Assembly (NCBI GenBank): GCA_965223905.1
Contig: CBDCXV010000010.1
Location: 1,120,001-1,184,000 of the forward strand
Direction of reading: 5' to 3'
Length of the DNA: 64,000 nt
Source: Candidatus Latescibacterota bacterium
GTDB lineage: Bacteria > Latescibacterota > UBA2968 > UBA8231
Shown: positions 8,980-15,745 of the stretch, piece after piece
How positions within the stretch are numbered: position 1 is the stretch's first letter
Layout: every line of letters starts with the position of its first letter
Made by a program: the position numbers and the translations under genes
The notes under the pieces: generated by a model
Database searches by the model: none
The model's input: the letters and a program-made list of their open reading frames with translations, nothing else
Told to the model about the DNA's origin: nothing

Positions 8980-11900
8980 CTAGTAAGCCACGGCGATTGA
9001 CCGCAGCAACGTGATATCACCAGAGTCGGTCTCCAGTCTTATCTGGCAGATGTAGATGCCGGGCAGCACTTTTTGCCCGCTTGTATCGGTGCCGTCCCAT
9101 GGCATGACCGCTCGTCCACTGCTGACCATCTGCGACCTTTCGTACACCCGGCTGCCATCGAGCTGGTAGATTCGCATCTCGACCCGGCGCCTGGCACTGA
9201 TATCGAGGATGCTCATGTGGACGAGGGTTTCGTCATTGATACCGTCACTGTTGGGCGAGAACGGGTTGGGGGCAATCTCGGACACCTCGATAGCCTTGGT
9301 CTCGAGCGGCAGACCGATGGAGAGCGTATTCCCTTCGCGCAGCTTCGAGGCATCACCGGCTTCGACGTCCTGCCAGAGGGCTGTCGGGTCGGCACCTCCT
9401 GCCGCGTTGCGGACGGCGACGGCGAGGGTGGTGCCGTTCCTGAAGACGGGGGCTGCAAAGCGCACCCGTATCTCAGGGCCTGCGCCGACAACGGTGCCCT
9501 GCTTGTCCCCGGTCAGCCGTCTGTGTCCTGTCGCATCTAGCGAATCACCTTCGACGCCAAAGGGGAACTGCGGCCCGTCGCCGAGCAACACCCGGAAATA
9601 CCGTATGGGCCCCCTCTCTTCTTCCTCCAGCTCGCCCCAGATTAACTGGGGGACCTTATCTCCGACTGAGTCGATTTTCGTCAACCGAATCCTGCCGCCG
9701 GTAATGATCTGGCGAAAGTACAGGATTTTTCCCTGCTCTTCCTCTTCGAGCCCTCCATAGGCTATTGCCGAGAGCGGCAGACCTTCATGGTCCACGGGAA
9801 CCTGGTCGCCGGCAACCGTGACCGCGTTGTATGTCCTCTTGGCCTCGCTCGTGGGGAGTATGTTGACGGTTGAAGAAAATCGCACTCGGATGGAATCGGT
9901 GGAGCTTGTCACTACCTGTAGCTCCTTGCCTTCATCGTCCACGAAGATGCCATCGACCCCGGAGGGGTGGAATTCCTGTTTCGCTGCGCCGGTTTGGGAG
10001 TCGACACCCACGTCGATCCCGAGCAGGTCAACGGGTACTCCCGACGGCATGACCAGCCGCATTTCATCGAAGCCCTTGCTTCGAGATCCCACCGGCCGTT
10101 CGACGAAATGGGTCAGGATGAAGGCCTCGAAGGTGTCCACCCGCCCCGCAACCGCAACCTGCGTCGGCCACAGCTCAGCGAGAAGGTCTTCGCCCACCAA
10201 CTCCGTGAGTCCTATGTCGATGGAGCTGATCGACGCTGCCGCCTCGCGGGCTCGGCTTTTCAGCTTGACCTGGAGCTGGAGAAACTTCCTTCCCCCGGGC
10301 GAGGTGACGGGCACCCCCGGATGCTCATAGTTGCGACTCCAGGCGCTCCAGCCGACGGTGGGTACGAAGGTCGTGTCGGACGTCCGCCAGGAATTGAGCA
10401 GACGATTCCATGTGGCAAGGTCGATCTCGTGGCCGGTATTCTTGTTGTAATAGCGAATTTCCTTCCCGAGAATGTCGCCCGTGCGAGTCTGGACCTCCAG
10501 ATCAGTTCCAGACGGGGTATCGCCGACCCATGAAATGCGGGCTGGAGTGCTCCCGGAGGGAATCTCGATCAAGTCCGAGGTCAATACCGCCTCGGCGACA
10601 TGTCCTCGCGAAAAGAGCCCGTATTCAGCGATGCAGGCACTGGTGTTCGCGAGGTTTTGCAGATCCTTCGTAGTGAAGATTGTCATCTCCAGAAACCGCA
10701 ACTGCCGGGGGGGATCGTACACGTCCATGAGTTGCTTGTAATTGTTCACCGAGTTTTCTGTGCGTTCCGGAGGACTGAGGGGTTCCCAATTGAACCCTCC
10801 GGTCGCGTCGCGGCTGCCGTCTGAGCTGCGGTGTATGTATCCGTCGAAGTCCTGGCACGCGCGACCGAGAATATCCACTGCCGATACACGGACGATGTCC
10901 AGCCAGAAGGTGGCACCGAGGTCGACCGTCAAAATCCCGGCAGGGGCCCCCGGAATCGGGATTTCGTGATCGTAGAAGGTGCTGAAGTCTCCGTCGAAGG
11001 CGAGGGGCGGAGGATTCAAAACGGACGGCACGAGGAGACTGAAATTGCCGCCACCTTCTAGAAGATTCGGGCTGATGTTGTCCCCGAAACCCCACACCTC
11101 GAGGTCGGCCAGGCGGGGGCGCTCGTGACGGTAGTAGACTTTGCTCCCCTGCCGTGCCGCCGGCAATCGGTCGTATTCGTCCTTTTCAATCGGTTCCTCG
11201 ACCCCTTCCGAATCCTTGACAAAATGGAGGACATCGCCTCGATCCCCACTGTCCAGAGCGGTCCATTCCGCCTCGGAAATCTCCGTGTGCCTGCCGCCCC
11301 TGGTGTCGGTCACCACGATCCGGATGGTTTCGACCATTCTGCCCGTCCACCCTGGGGCTGCTTCCAGATTGTCCTGCAGCGGAACCGAGAAAGTCCGGAG
11401 CGCGTTGGGCTTGTCCGTACCCCCCACAACCCGCAACTGCAGCTGCAGTGCATTCTGCGTGACCGGCTCCTGATGGAAAGAAGTCAAGACCTTGAACTGA
11501 CGGAACGGATCGCCCTCCCCCTCGTCTGCGAATTTGAGAACCAGCGAATCCACGGGCACGGTCCGACCGAGGTCCACTTCGATCCACCATCGCTCGATCG
11601 GGTCATCGGAATCCGGCTCCCAGCATGTCGCCTGGATGCCGTCGAGGATATTCGCGGCTGAGTCCGGGTTCGAGCCCACGCGACTGATGCCAGGTTTGAC
11701 GAAATACTCGTAGACGGGCACTTCCCGACCCCCTTTTTTCTGCGTCAGGATCTCGCCCAGCGGGTCGCGCTTCACCGTGCTGTCGATGTTGGGGATGGCA
11801 ATGTCGTCGTTCTGGCGTCTCAGGTCCGGGAGCTTCCGACGGAATGTATTGAGATCGTCGAGGACGTTGTATCGATCCCGGAAGCGCCACGGTTTGACTC

Positions 11901-12135
11901 CCCCGGCAGTCACATCGAGGGCGTGAGTGGGCAGCTTCCAGTTGTGCCAGTGCCCTCTCCCCGCGCTGACGATCACCCGGTCTTCGCCCAGGACCAGGTG
12001 CCCTTTGTTGCTCTGGGGGTGAACGGATTGCGGGGCACCTAGAAACAAGGCCAGTCCCAAGACATGGATGAGTGAGACCGGGACACGGCTTGGCCCGGCG
12101 CCCGTGGCGAGCGCGCAGCTGACAGGCTGCCTCAT
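8980..12135 (-). CDS. Secreted protein with two discoidin-like domains and C-terminal CHU_C/FlgD-Ig hybrid domain (paralogue 2)
   Basis: Start reassigned to ATG 12135 (MRQPVS) because AGGAGG lies 5 nt upstream (12146-12141) and the track's start at 12159 falls inside the intron. WIEVDLG and LTVDLG discoidin motifs; PNPFSPNSDGINDE...WDGTD..G..VLPGIY...IAVAY. Confidence 0.8.
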   Translation of the reverse strand: MRQPVSCALATGAGPSRVPVSLIHVLGLALFLGAPQSVHPQSNKGHLVLGEDRVIVSAGRGHWHNWKLPTHALDVTAGGVKPWRFRDRYNVLDDLNTFRRKLPDLRRQNDDIAIPNIDSTVKRDPLGEILTQKKGGREVPVYEYFVKPGISRVGSNPDSAANILDGIQATCWEPDSDDPIERWWIEVDLGRTVPVDSLVLKFADEGEGDPFRQFKVLTSFHQEPVTQNALQLQLRVVGGTDKPNALRTFSVPLQDNLEAAPGWTGRMVETIRIVVTDTRGGRHTEISEAEWTALDSGDRGDVLHFVKDSEGVEEPIEKDEYDRLPAARQGSKVYYRHERPRLADLEVWGFGDNISPNLLEGGGNFSLLVPSVLNPPPLAFDGDFSTFYDHEIPIPGAPAGILTVDLGATFWLDIVRVSAVDILGRACQDFDGYIHRSSDGSRDATGGFNWEPLSPPERTENSVNNYKQLMDVYDPPRQLRFLEMTIFTTKDLQNLANTSACIAEYGLFSRGHVAEAVLTSDLIEIPSGSTPARISWVGDTPSGTDLEVQTRTGDILGKEIRYYNKNTGHEIDLATWNRLLNSWRTSDTTFVPTVGWSAWSRNYEHPGVPVTSPGGRKFLQLQVKLKSRAREAAASISSIDIGLTELVGEDLLAELWPTQVAVAGRVDTFEAFILTHFVERPVGSRSKGFDEMRLVMPSGVPVDLLGIDVGVDSQTGAAKQEFHPSGVDGIFVDDEGKELQVVTSSTDSIRVRFSSTVNILPTSEAKRTYNAVTVAGDQVPVDHEGLPLSAIAYGGLEEEEQGKILYFRQIITGGRIRLTKIDSVGDKVPQLIWGELEEEERGPIRYFRVLLGDGPQFPFGVEGDSLDATGHRRLTGDKQGTVVGAGPEIRVRFAAPVFRNGTTLAVAVRNAAGGADPTALWQDVEAGDASKLREGNTLSIGLPLETKAIEVSEIAPNPFSPNSDGINDETLVHMSILDISARRRVEMRIYQLDGSRVYERSQMVSSGRAVMPWDGTDTSGQKVLPGIYICQIRLETDSGDITLLRSIAVAY

Positions 12136-12140
12136 GTGTG

Positions 12141-12146
12141 CCTCCT
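12141..12146 (-). promoter_or_regulatory. Shine-Dalgarno AGGAGG of the 12135 gene; on the + strand it forms the intron 5' exon end (IBS1)
   Basis: Minus strand reads AGGAGG-cacac-ATG. Plus-strand CCTCCT abuts the intron 5' GTGCG. Confidence 0.8.
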
Positions 12147-14072
12147 GTGCGCCGGTCACACCGGCGAGGTGTTAGAGGTGAAAGTCCTTTGTGTTGAAGG
12201 TGTAGCGAACCACGACAGCCCCGAGTCATGCGTGTGCGCCGGTAACGGCGCAGGCGAAGCGTTGGCAGGGGGGAGCGTAGGTCCGGTATGGAGCCGCGAA
12301 AGAAATGAATCCCTTTCGGGTGGCCGACCCGTTAGGAGGCGAGGGAAGGCCCCATCGGTGGGCGCGATATCGCCAGCGTCCATCGGACCCGGCGCGGTCA
12401 GAGGCCCGGCGCAGGCGCCCAGGCACCTCGTACGGGAACCGGGAGGTCCGGCGGTTGGCCCGGGGGGATGGTCCCCGGGTCCGCATCGGGAACCCGAAAG
12501 GGGCACGCCGATGACGCACGACCGCCGGAAGTCGGACAGCCCCATACAACCGGGGAACCCCGCGCACAAGGGGGGTCAGTCCGCTGCGCCCCCGGCGGAG
12601 CGGGGGGAGGGAAGGGGGCTGGGCAAGGGGAACGCGAGCGAGCACCCCAGGTCCCGGGCGCAGATCCGGACCGACCTGCACCAGGCGCTCGAACGCGTAC
12701 GACAAGCAGCGGTTCGAGACAGGGAGTTGCCGTTCACGACGCTGTGGCATCACGTCTAGACCATCGAGCGCCTCCGGGAGGCCTACCTCGGCCTCAAGCG
12801 GCAGGCCGCACCGGGGGTCGATCGCATGACGTGGAGCGAGTACGGGCAGGGGTTGGAAGCACGTCTTCAGGACCTGTCGGCCCGGCTCAAGCGCGGCGCG
12901 TATCGAGCCAAACCGGTCAAACGGACGTACATCCCGAAAGGAGACGGAGGCAGGAGACCGCTGGGCCTTGCGGCGCTGGAGGACAAGATCGTCCAGAAGG
13001 CGACCGTGGAGGTGCTCAATGCGGTCTACGAAGTCGATTTTCTGGGATTCTCGTATGGGTATCGACCGGGGCGCAGCCCGCACAGGGCGCTGGATGCGTT
13101 GGCGGTGGGGATCCAACACCGCAAAGTGAACTGGGTACTCGACGCGGACATCCGTGGGTTCTTCGACACCATCGACCACGAAGGGCTGATGAGGTTCGTC
13201 GAGCACCGTGTGCGGGACCGACGCGTGGTGCGCCACCTCAGGAAGTGGCTCAACGCGGGGGTCCTGGAAGAGGGCAGACGTATCGACGCAGAGGCAGGGA
13301 TGCCCCAGGGGGCCAGCATTTCGCCCCTGTTGGCAAACATCTACCTGCACTACGTCTTCGACCTGTGGGCGCAACGATGGCGAAAGCGACGCGCGCAAGG
13401 GGAGGTACTCCTGGTGCGCTACGCGGACGACCTCGTGGCCCGCTTTCAACACCGAGCCGACGCCGAGGCGTTCGGCGCCGACCTGGCCGCGCGGCTGGCG
13501 AGGTTTTCCCTGCAGCTGCACCCGGACAAGACGCGACGGATCGAGTTCGGGCGCTTTGCCGCGGAAAACCGGCGCCGACGGGGCGAAGGGAAACCCGAAA
13601 CGTTCGATTTTCTCGGGTTTACCCACAGCTGCGACCAGACGCGCCGGGGCAAGTTCATCGTCCTGAGACAGACGGCCAAGGAGCGGATGCGGCGAAAGCT
13701 CAAAGAGGTCAAGGCGATCCTCCAACGGCGGATGCATGACCCCGTAGCCGAAGTGGCGTGCTACCTCCGCCGCGTGATCACCGGGCACCTGAACTATATG
13801 GCGTGCCCCGGAATGGTCCGGCGCTGTGCGCGTTCATCAAGGGCATCGCCATCCATTGGTAGCGGGCCCTCAAGCGACGGAGCCACAAAACCAGGGTCAC
13901 GGGGCGGCGCATGAAGGATCTCTGGTACCAACTGTTGCCTCCTCCGCGCATCACTCACCCCTATCCCGAACAGCGCTTTGCCGTCATGACCCGAGGCAGG
14001 AGCCCAGTGCGGTAACTCCGCTCGTTGGGATCTGTGGAGGGGGTGGTCAGTAATGGTCATTCCTACTCCGAC
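12147..14072 (+). mobile_element. Group II intron (IIB-type, resembles bacterial class E), inserted antisense to the host operon
   Basis: 5' GTGCG at 12147 followed by GGTGAAAGTCC. Domain V GAGCCCAGTGCGGTAACTCCGCTCGTTGGGATC from 14000; domain VI ending CCTACTCCGAC at 14072; internal RT ORF. Confidence 0.9.
12511..14015 (+). pseudogene. ltrA: Group II intron reverse transcriptase/maturase, inactivated
   Basis: AAPGVD, YIPKGDG..RPLG, GFSYGYRPGRS, DADIRGFFD, GMPQG..ISPLLANIYL, RYADD, FDFLGF. In-frame TAG at 12757-12759, a 1-nt frameshift near 13797 (GHLNY|YGVP) and a second TAG at 13860-13862. Tail ...PRITHPYP...SPVR* ends at 14015. Confidence 0.9.
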
Positions 14073-14092
14073 GCGGAACTGCTGACGTGGCG

Positions 14093-15745
14093 TCAACCTT
14101 CCAAAAGACTTTCGGGCAGTGCTTCGGCAAGACGGGACTCGAACACCCTGACCTCGGCGGCGTATTTGTCGCGCAGCTGTCCCAGCAACTCCTCGAAGCC
14201 TTCCTTTGCTTTTTGCACCAGCAGCAGCTGCGTGGCCTGTTGCTTCACCGTTGCATACGGTTGCTGCGTCTGTGGCTCCTTGCGCAGCACGGTGAATATC
14301 GACCATCCCCCCTTCACTTCGACGGGACCGACGATCTCCCCCTCAGGTGCTGCCATGATGGCCGCCAAGAGCCTGGGATATATGATCCTTTCGCGATTAT
14401 GAAAGTGAAATTGGCCCGTGGACTCCCGGGCCCCCTCCCTCAAGCTGCTGATCGTGAAGTCCTCCCAGGGCTCTCCCGCTACCAGCCGCCGATGCACCTC
14501 CTCCGCCTCGTCCCTGGTGGAGGACAGCACCTCCTTGATATAGACCGAAAGCTCGGTCATGAACAATTCGGGGTGGCTGTCGTAATACTCCCTCACTTGC
14601 TCCTCGGATAGGCTTACGCGTTCGGGCACGGCGGACTTCCTCATCGCTTCGAGCAGGGTTTGCTCCACGGTTTGCTCCTCGAACTCGCGGACGTCAAGTC
14701 TGTCGTACAACCCGGCCTGCCGGGCGGCCGCGTCGAACAGGGCGGGACGGAGGACCAACTCCTCGAGGGTGGAGACGGTCTTTGCGCTGTCCGCCAGCTG
14801 TTGGAAATGGTCCGGCCGCCCCATGACTTCGTAGGCCTCGGCGACCGTTATCTCGCCACCCTCGAATCCGTACAGTACGACCCCGCTCTTTTCCGCTGCA
14901 GCGGTCTCCTTGTCGCGATAGGCCTCCCGGAGTTCGGTCAATCCCTCCGGATGAAGCCTGACCCGAAAGGACTCCCTGAGCGCTTCGAAGTGCTCCCCTG
15001 CCAGCTGGGATATTTTGCCCCCCAGGAGGTGATGCCTTGCCGCAAACCGGTACTTTTCAAACGGTACCGGGCGTTCTTGTGTGAATCGGAGGACGGACCA
15101 ATCGTTCGCTACACGCTGAGGTTTTGAGACCTCACCCAGGGGCAGAGAGACGAAGAGATCCGGTGGGATGCCGACCTTCGCTATATTGTACCGGTCCACC
15201 CACGTAAAGTGCCCTCCCGCGCTGGCGGAGCGCTCCTCCACGGAATACTCACGGGCTACTTCCTCGAAAGGACGGCCCGCCTCCAGTTCACCCACGACCT
15301 TGTCGATGTCTGCTCGAGTTTTCACCACAATCGCGGTGAACCAGCGTTCGATCTGGAAGCCGTGATGGGCGGAGAATGCGCGCAGCTCCTCCTCCGGGAC
15401 CTCGATTTTCGACAGGATCTTGTTATAGCGGTAGAGGGCCCGCACCTTCGTGTCGACCACATTCCGGACCGACTCCCGCACCGTCAAGGTCGTGTCCAGA
15501 CCACGGGATTTGGCCTCCATCAGCAACAGGCGGCCGTCTATGAGGGACTGCAGGTAGTGTCGCCGTGCTGCCTCGCCTGTTTTCTCTGTGCGCAATCCAG
15601 GCGCCAAACGGCTGACGAATTCTCGCAAGGCGGAGGGCGTAATCTCGTGCGATCCCACCACGGCCACCACGTCGTCCTGCTTCGGTTGACTGCAGCAGAC
15701 CAGCAGGCTTGTGAAAACGGCTATGGCGATCTGGACGTAAACCAT
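14093..15745 (-). CDS. Lipoprotein foldase with two PpiC/parvulin-type PPIase domains (PrsA/SurA-like)
   Basis: Lipobox-like LLVCC; VAVVGSHEIT; FEEVAREYS..SASAGG; EVSKP; second domain GEIVGPVEVKGGWSIF. Confidence 0.8.
   Translation of the reverse strand: MVYVQIAIAVFTSLLVCCSQPKQDDVVAVVGSHEITPSALREFVSRLAPGLRTEKTGEAARRHYLQSLIDGRLLLMEAKSRGLDTTLTVRESVRNVVDTKVRALYRYNKILSKIEVPEEELRAFSAHHGFQIERWFTAIVVKTRADIDKVVGELEAGRPFEEVAREYSVEERSASAGGHFTWVDRYNIAKVGIPPDLFVSLPLGEVSKPQRVANDWSVLRFTQERPVPFEKYRFAARHHLLGGKISQLAGEHFEALRESFRVRLHPEGLTELREAYRDKETAAAEKSGVVLYGFEGGEITVAEAYEVMGRPDHFQQLADSAKTVSTLEELVLRPALFDAAARQAGLYDRLDVREFEEQTVEQTLLEAMRKSAVPERVSLSEEQVREYYDSHPELFMTELSVYIKEVLSSTRDEAEEVHRRLVAGEPWEDFTISSLREGARESTGQFHFHNRERIIYPRLLAAIMAAPEGEIVGPVEVKGGWSIFTVLRKEPQTQQPYATVKQQATQLLLVQKAKEGFEELLGQLRDKYAAEVRVFESRLAEALPESLLEG

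Follow-up and report, generated by a model that had tools for sequence, protein, structure and literature searches.

A decayed group II intron of a Candidatus Latescibacterota bacterium and its probable lineage, very likely inserted antisense at Shine-Dalgarno sequences near start codons

Results

The intron and its boundaries

The window analyzed in this study, a 64,000-nucleotide (nt) stretch of DNA from a Candidatus Latescibacterota bacterium (assembly GCA_965223905.1, contig CBDCXV010000010.1, positions 1,120,001 to 1,184,000), contains a group II intron placed in a gap of 20+7+5 nt between two genes. The minus strand carries both of these genes, so that the intron runs antisense to each neighbor (Table 1). 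At its 5′ end the intron directly adjoins the complement of the Shine-Dalgarno (SD) sequence of one gene, and the data presented below indicate that it is very probably a decayed copy of a widespread mobile group II intron lineage whose exon-binding site 1 (EBS1) is SD-like (NGGAGNN), and which inserts antisense at the SD border near start codons. An earlier interpretation made from the letters alone (the sequence-only reading) had placed the end of the 5′ exon, GCCTCCT, at 12140-12146, the intron start GTGCG from 12147, and an EBS1 motif, AGGAGGC, at 12334-12340 as a perfect 7-bp complement of the exon end. All of these positions were confirmed, and 12334-12340 forms 7/7 Watson-Crick pairs with 12140-12146. 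It had also stated that the insertion damaged neither gene nor ribosome-binding site; when the intron (12147-14072) was removed, the minus strand indeed read TGA (14095-14093), 20 nt (14092-14073), AGGAGG, cacac, and ATG (12135-12133).

Two Rfam models aligned with the intron. RF02005 (group-II-D1D4-6), which was the sole Rfam family at or above its gathering score within the 64-kb window, matched 12181-12407 over model positions 1-225 (163.5 bits; E 2.6e-47; gathering score 49), and RF00029 aligned over its full length (1-77) to 13998-14072 (E 2.1e-5). The RF00029 alignment set the 3′ end of the intron at 14072, with the terminal sequence ...CUACUCCGAC (GAC at 14070-14072), which is common to full-length relatives. 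Group II introns begin with GUGYG, and GUGYG/AY-type ends were found in the window (GUGCG at 12147-12151), in five window-clade copies, and in 24 full-length copies from other genomes. The first base of the 3′ exon (+1) is G in the window and T in 4/5 window-clade copies and 16/19 SD-type full-length copies. Within domain V, the helix and its loop read GCGG-UAACU-CCGC (14009-14021). Without its open reading frame (ORF), the ribozyme measures about 440 nt, with about 365 nt before the ORF start (12147-12510) and about 57 nt past the ORF stop. The EBS1 hairpin is followed by a stem-loop at 12353-12387, the loop of which (UCGC), as judged by eye, could pair with GCGA of an earlier loop.

Table 1. 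Features of the intron and of its surroundings (positions are those of the window).
Feature	Coordinates	Strand	Description	Basis
Group II intron	12147-14072	+	1926 nt; non-autonomous copy	5′ GUGCG; RF02005; RF00029
Intron-binding site 1 (IBS1), GCCTCCT	12140-12146	+	Last 7 nt of 5′ exon; complement of SD AGGAGGC of gene 8980-12135	
EBS1, AGGAGGC	12334-12340	+	Loop of domain I hairpin 12324-12349	Rfam alignment; covariation with exons in 49 copies, including register shifts
One-sided 16-nt bulge, AAAGAAAUGAAUCCCU	12299-12314	+	AUGA at 12305-12308, candidate EBS2 complementary to TCAT at 12132-12135	RF02005 structure line
Reverse-transcriptase/maturase remnant	12511-14015	+	In-frame TAG at 12757-12759 and 13860-13862; frameshift near 13795	RVT_1, E 2.6e-36
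Putative domains V and VI	13998-14072	+	AGC triad; 5-nt domain V loop UAACU (14013-14017); bulged A at 14065 (7 nt from 3′ end); 3′ AC	RF00029 alignment
3′ exon	14073-14092	+	20-nt spacer between stop codon of upstream minus-strand gene and SD	
Gene adjoining intron 5′ end	8980-12135	-	1051 aa; F5/8 type C and CHU_C (type IX secretion) domains; SD and start intact	
Start codon ATG of gene 8980-12135	12133-12135	-	CAT on intron strand, 11 nt from insertion point	
Upstream gene, PPIase/SurA-like	14093-15745	-	Stop TGA at 14095-14093	

Pairing of EBS1 with the 5′ exon

The RF02005 alignment sets UUAGGAGGC in a hairpin loop, and the pairing of this loop with the 7 nt before the insertion point fixes that point to the base. 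Because EBS1 pairs with these 7 nt, the target is the strand antisense to the gene, at the 5′ border of the SD complement. When five full 5′ parts from the host's class were aligned, the loop AGGAGGC was found with the exon end GCCTCCT, AGGAGAC with GACTCCT, UGGAGAC with CTCTCCA, and GGAGGAC with GGCCTCC, in the last case with the junction one base nearer the core; a relative that is not of the SD type combined the loop UAACCGA with the exon ACGGTTA.

In a larger set of 49 copies, loop and exon formed 7 pairs in 20 copies, 6 in 25, 5 in three, and 4 in one (at least 6/7 in 45/49). The mean match was 6.31/7, compared with 4.55 ± 0.14 when the loops were shuffled among copies, and none of 5000 shuffles reached the observed value. 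Moreover, junctions that follow CTCC, CTCCT, CTCCTT, CTCCG, or CTCCA track loops of the form GGAGnnn, AGGAGnn, AAGGAGn, CGGAGnn, or UGGAGnn, respectively; the register of insertion shifts along with that of the loop. The sequence-only reading had considered that related introns might carry other EBS1 sequences and lie at random sites. Instead, GGAG was present within the loop in 42/49 copies, and the other seven loops (for example GGGGCUC, CAGAGGC, AUGCAUA, and GGUGACA) pair with their own exons, which are not SD-like and not beside start codons. Since these seven changed loops lie at matching sites that are not of the SD type, the loop is EBS1.

A quick FastTree tree of 87 distinct domain I sequences, in which support values were left out of account, contained 77 SD-type members. 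The 10 others were scattered singly among them, which suggests that the SD-type loop may be the normal state of the lineage and that retargeted copies may be sporadic. One retargeted relative, with the EBS1 GGGGCUC, was found three times in one metagenome-assembled genome (L075, L089, and L117), at a repeated GGGGGTT-CGGGGGC-NNN-GCCCC motif; its 5-7 nt of EBS2-like complementarity indicates that it acts as an ordinary site-specific homing intron. In the host genome (G000), two more RF02005-type introns with a different 5′ hairpin (37-49 bits) were observed at C11:95945-96239 (plus strand) and C11:1963194-1963486 (minus strand). Their loops and exons read CGUAUAA and TTATATG in one and UGGAUUU and GGCTCCA in the other, and neither lies beside a start codon.

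Insertion sites in the host genome and its class

Four copies or fragments of the intron were found in the host genome. Copy A is that of the window, copy B is 93% identical to A over positions 1-1188, copy D is a 137-nt 5′ stub, and the fourth copy ends at the end of contig C7. The three 5′ junctions present in the host assembly follow CATgtgtgCCTCCT, CATgcttcgaCTCCT, and CATgaatcttCTCCT (copies A, B, and D). The C7-type copy was recovered whole, together with the C7 3′ flank, in a DNA contig of a public run, where its 5′ flank ends in ...CATTTTTAACCTCCT. In this organism, 4/4 5′ junctions consist of CTCCT directly followed by GTGCG, with CAT upstream, which corresponds to an antisense SD, a spacer, and an ATG; the surroundings are otherwise unrelated.

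Class-level DNA searches covered 61 and then 132 genomes and gave matches in 12 genomes; orthologous or paralogous sites were merged. Among the 18 distinct 5′ junctions obtained, 17 combined an SD-like motif on the opposite strand with a CAT no more than 21 nt away. The exon ended in CTCC, CTCCT, CTCCA, or CTCCG at 16 junctions, in CCTTTCT (antisense AGAAAGG) at one, which represents a paralogous gene family of one genus, and in ACGGTTA (L015/L019) at one. The ATG opened an ORF of at least 50 codons, or one running off the locus, at 14/16 testable sites.

In a family-level relative, reached via the neighboring PPIase/SurA-like protein, the orthologous gene pair has no intron and reads TGA-31 nt-AGGAGG-ttacc-ATG. 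Because this uninterrupted ortholog already has AGGAGG, the SD belongs to the host and predates the insertion. The empty allele that the sequence-only reading had proposed to look for was recovered as an ortholog in this relative, but a DNA search with the window's two flanks gave no useful match in five relatives.

Insertion sites in public genome and metagenome contigs

Public genome contigs were scanned with the first 24-27 nt of the intron only, that is, blind to the flanks. At least 117 stretches were obtained and 80 loci were taken, of which 17 were chance coding matches and 63 were real intron ends; after exclusion of one locus with a short flank and two duplicates, 60 unique sites remained. 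Among the matches listed, an antisense GGAG was found within 8 nt of the junction at 50/60 sites, and 49 of these 50 had an ATG 3-21 nt off together with an ORF that was at least 50 codons long or ran off the locus. All full-length SD-type copies (19/19) fit the pattern of SD and start. The insertion point is 10-15 nt from the complement of the start codon, usually with T at +1, and SD and ATG are left intact. The hosts, as labeled in the database records, were Acidobacteriota, several Proteobacteria, Planctomycetota, Myxococcota, Rokubacteria, and others. The 49 target ORFs fell into 44 similarity clusters and resemble ordinary genes, so that the lineage targets many unrelated genes in many phyla.

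Metagenome contigs were scanned in a like manner. From 80 loci, eight were dropped (flank shorter than 45 nt) and three were duplicates, leaving 69 unique sites, one of which was a chance match. GGAG was found antisense at 60/69 sites, with an ATG 3-21 nt off at 57 of these 60 and an ORF of at least 50 codons, or one running off the contig, at 50 of the 60. From the host junctions and class sites to the genome and metagenome contigs, the flanks were as the sequence-only reading had predicted, on a larger scale, and its idea that the lineage homes to anti-SD sequences was supported across the whole lineage. These sites might, as it also suggested, be safe harbors at which an intron would not need to splice.

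Pairing alone does not explain site choice

As a background, start-adjacent sites were counted in the window's genome with a crude home-made gene caller (5397 genes; 81% coding). Among CTCC-type motifs of 4-8 nt, such sites accounted for 2-14% overall and for 10-33% outside genes. A second and cleaner comparison was provided by Variovorax sp. WS11, an isolate with a genome of 8.5 Mb, in which nine copies are 98-100% identical over 400 nt. All nine are inserted directly after RTCTCCG with CAT 3-7 nt upstream, and each precedes a different ORF, the lengths of which range from 65 to more than 496 codons. The WS11 genome contains 2111 RTCTCCG sites, of which 257 (12%) have such a CAT, so that the chance of 9/9 is 5.9e-9. 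EBS1 pairing alone thus does not explain site choice, as shown statistically, a limit that the sequence-only reading had not foreseen; the introns lie almost exclusively at SD-like motifs with a start codon after them. Because 9/9 copies are at such sites versus 257 of the 2111 matching 7-mers, something beyond EBS1 pairing ties insertion to start codons; because the WS11 copies are so young, there has been little time for selection.

These data bear directly on the explanation that, although unlikely, survives best among the alternatives, namely that only EBS1/EBS3 pairing and purifying selection are at work. Insertion would then occur at any CTCC-type match, copies within genes or at harmful positions would be lost, and the survivors would pile up at ribosome-binding sites, the most frequent GGAG motifs outside genes. 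SD-plus-start sites are indeed enriched among non-genic motif matches, up to 33% for 8-mers. However, at most about one third of sites would be expected where 49/50 were observed (P ~1e-22). Nor is selection readily reconciled with nine of nine very recent WS11 copies at start codons, when 12% of matching 7-mers lie there, or with the 19/19 full-length copies that fit. The lack of any sequence signal around the ATG that sets targets apart from neighboring genes would suit such an explanation, as would the changed-EBS1 relatives, which are not at start codons. On the other hand, the window's intron cuts gene 8980-12135 off from the transcription signals that precede it. A site between transcription signals and SD offers no evident safety over a position between convergent genes, yet none of the latter was seen; moreover, the host 16S rRNA gene's own canonical CCTCCT end is unoccupied by the intron.

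Ordinary site-specific homing, in which one long site in a repeated element or in a single conserved gene would include the ribosome-binding site, is very improbable. A few flanks do recur (L044, L102, L109, and L172 have one gene start in common), and a paralogous gene family of one genus carries the same 93-nt stub, but 44 similarity clusters among 49 target ORFs, flanks that have nothing in common except CAT...CTCC, and an EBS2 complementarity that is marginal (see below) all argue against a single long site. That the CTCC motif is part of the mobile element and that genes would receive their SD from it is scarcely credible: the motif always abuts the element end, but group II introns begin at GUGYG, the flank is variable and changes in step with the internal loop, AGGAGG is already present in the uninterrupted ortholog, and spacer and SD variants differ between sites.

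The preferred interpretation, a decayed member of a mobile lineage directed by an SD-like EBS1 to the SD border near start codons, has several observations weighing against it. The RF00029 score is under the gathering threshold (34.2 versus 40 bits). In a single-sequence minimum-energy fold, the GGC of AGGAGGC lies in a stem and AGGA alone is in the loop; folding of domain I, which had been proposed as a check of EBS1, therefore placed the full motif in the loop in the covariance-model alignment but not in the single-sequence fold, and because the latter buries part of EBS1, the loop assignment is supported by the covariance-model alignment together with the covariation of loops and exons. GGAG was missing at 10/60 genome-contig and 9/69 metagenome sites, and since some flanks recur, the two collections are not fully independent. 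Two SD-type sites, those of copy B and L025, precede ORFs of just 24 and 19 codons. The backgrounds were estimated with a home-made caller in one genome and by counting pattern matches in a second. Around the ATG, the base frequencies of the 49 targets were not clearly unlike those of 60 neighboring SD-led genes, and the distance from junction to ATG (12-13 nt in 36/49) was no tighter than natural SD spacing; in one genome (G132), N=4 was also the commonest natural spacing in a hand count of 50 rows. In the bulge described below, AUG is not conserved in the lineage's largest group, which nevertheless has the same association with start codons. Finally, we infer, from what is seen in the sequences, reverse splicing into DNA, current mobility, and the strand that is transcribed.

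A candidate second determinant

The sequence-only reading had tentatively placed an EBS2, ATGA near 12306-12309, that would pair with TCAT, the complement of the start codon. The motif is present one base off, at 12305-12308, within the 16-nt bulge (Table 1), and its AUG is kept in the window's sub-lineage but not in the main group. Six bulge variants, which come from the window's clade and three other sub-lineages, all have AUG in this position, mostly as CAUG, and in four copies the complementarity extends to 5-6 bases (TTCATT, TCATGG, CATGG, and GCATG). Site-specific complementarity of EBS2 was marginal: the mean longest complement was 3.90 versus 3.60 after shuffling (P 0.047), and complements of at least 5 nt were found in 13/48 copies versus 10 expected (P 0.16). 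In the window's class, C before the ATG was enriched (CATG at 14/17 sites versus 0.41 in the background; P 5.7e-4); it was not enriched in the wide set, where it amounted to 45% in targets and background alike.

A second determinant would act beyond EBS1, and the best candidate in the window's sub-lineage may be a short EBS2-like (C)AUG that would pair with the antisense start CAT(G). Alternatively, site choice might depend on a protein that touches the DNA between -12 and -16, on local DNA melting, or on another property of initiation-region DNA. It is conceivable, though we lean somewhat against it, that the intron RNA mimics the start of an mRNA, with EBS1 as the SD and, in at least one sub-lineage, a single-stranded AUG that pairs with the antisense start at a flexible distance. 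If so, thousands of sites would be available in any bacterium, and this could explain the spread across phyla.

Local GC content was considered as a cause and was rejected: from -25 to -8, GC was 0.54 at start sites, 0.61 at other non-genic sites, and 0.66 at genic sites, a gap too small for the bias. GC skew around the four host-genome copies was too weak to tell which replication strand is hit.

The reverse-transcriptase gene and loss of autonomy

A same-genus copy encodes an intact protein of 501 aa, with Tyr and Trp where the window has its two TAG codons (Table 1). No domain besides RVT_1 was detected in this intact relative at E up to 0.01, and its nearest solved structures are group II intron reverse transcriptases. 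The natural stop codon of the gene, TAA at 14013-14015, falls within domain V. Because its reverse-transcriptase gene is broken, the window copy is unable to move alone. The C7 copy (C7:20676-21490) has the same frameshift and the second TAG, differs from the window copy at 3/815 positions, and lies at another site; since a second copy with the same lesions occupies a different site, the defective intron was probably mobilized in trans. No intact copy was found in the host genome, which is 93.6% complete. In two DNA runs, position 13861 is G, which gives Trp in place of the stop. As a dead member, the window copy is unremarkable in itself; it is the habit of the lineage that is of interest.

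Contigs from two RNA-library runs (X11 and X12) overlap portions of the intron and span its 3′ junction, although libraries of this kind may also contain DNA. No contig joining the exons across the intron was found in four runs, which bears neither way on splicing. A 520-codon open frame antisense to the reverse-transcriptase gene (12226-13788, minus strand) was accepted by a gene caller based on GC content at third codon positions (GC3). Most likely it is a shadow ORF of GC-rich DNA, and it serves as a warning for annotation.

Discussion

In the mechanism that we propose, insertion would proceed by reverse splicing into DNA, as for other group II introns, and the ubiquity of SD-plus-start sequences would supply the lineage with thousands of sites per bacterium, much as terminators do for group IIC introns. 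Group IIC introns use a generic and abundant non-coding motif and occupy many places in a genome; their ribozyme is small, and their protein lacks an endonuclease domain (PMC4424553, PMC12584367). Like them, the present lineage appears to use a generic, abundant motif as its target and not one long homing site. Unlike it, IIC introns insert directly after a terminator, where they read a DNA hairpin together with a short EBS/IBS pairing and no EBS2, and they lie sense, downstream of genes, whereas here a 7-nt EBS1 is matched with the SD complement and the intron lies antisense at the 5′ end of a gene. On either strand of 11900-14400, no terminator-like site and no sigma-70-like promoter was found, which lends no support to an outward promoter. 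This differs from the IIC-attC introns of integrons, in which outward-facing promoters reportedly maintain the expression of downstream cassettes (PMC3001079). Those introns are likewise antisense to the surrounding genes, but their target is the attC recombination site and not a ribosome-binding site.

A monophyletic IIB1 lineage has been described as tied to the start and stop codons of ordinary genes (PMC12584367), and a tie to the translation signals of ordinary genes is what the present lineage has in common with it. The IIB1 introns are sense, lie in or beside the codon, must splice, and carry an insertion of 300-700 nt at the base of domain I (PMC12584367). In contrast, the introns studied here are antisense, their insertion point at the SD border is 10-15 nt away from the start codon, and their whole 5′ ribozyme part measures about 365 nt. 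The lineage resembles the IIE and IIF classes, in which the ribozyme without ORF measures 450-700 nt, domain V has a 5-nt loop in place of a tetraloop, alpha′ lies in the terminal loop of a domain Id3 stem-loop, and EBS2 pairing is reported to be dispensable for splicing (PMC3753933): the present lineage also has a small ribozyme, the 5-nt domain V loop UAACU, a stem-loop after EBS1 that could carry alpha′, and apparently no endonuclease domain. In these respects it fits the published description of the two classes.

The excerpts of two IIE/IIF papers (PMC3753933, PMC3552965) contain nothing on an SD-like EBS1 or on ribosome-binding sites as targets. In the literature searched, with supplements and some key subscription papers outside its scope, no targeting by a group II intron was linked to Shine-Dalgarno or ribosome-binding sites. 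Only three target specificities are listed for bacterial group II introns in the part of a 2015 review that was available (PMC4424553), and in that of a 2025 paper the means by which any lineage, the IIB1 introns included, finds start or stop codons is still called unknown (PMC12584367). Precise landing at ribosome-binding sites would add a new target strategy. Going by the database records, the lineage is frequent among bacteria of soils and sponges, including Acidobacteriota, Proteobacteria, and Planctomycetota. Variovorax sp. WS11 offers a tractable case, because this one isolate genome has nine near-identical copies and the element is apparently intact. The questions raised are what reads the start codon, how an antisense intron is transcribed, and what becomes of a gene that is parted from its promoter by 1.9 kb. 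There is also a consequence for annotation, in that short 5′ stubs of such introns precede many genes.

Partial and rearranged copies

Of many copies only a 5′ stub of 27-181 nt is left, which still adjoins the SD (L003, L012-L014, L016, L020-L024, and many of L044-L240). Incomplete reverse transcription is expected to leave 3′ rather than 5′ fragments, and the 5′ stubs might instead come from deletions that spared the adjoining ribosome-binding site. In one DNA run, the region 12143-12223 had a summed depth of 87, whereas the intron body reached about 24 and the flank 11.

In three genomes of the set (G111, G099, and G103), a 40-95-nt 5′ stub was found right before AGAAAGG-N7-ATG in six paralogous genes (L026-L031), four of them in one genome. 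The genes encode MKRHCF... signal-peptide proteins. The stub was apparently duplicated together with the gene family and might now serve these genes, for instance as a leader or promoter. A copy that has lost its ORF and measures 911 nt (L041; G001:C3:959200-961800), with intron positions 577 to 1589 missing, occupies its own SD/ATG site in a genome that has a full-length copy with an intact protein gene elsewhere. In another copy (L018/L021; G019:C1:4188058-4189857), an insertion-sequence-like element of about 1.4 kb, with an ORF on the opposite strand, interrupts the intron after position 126.

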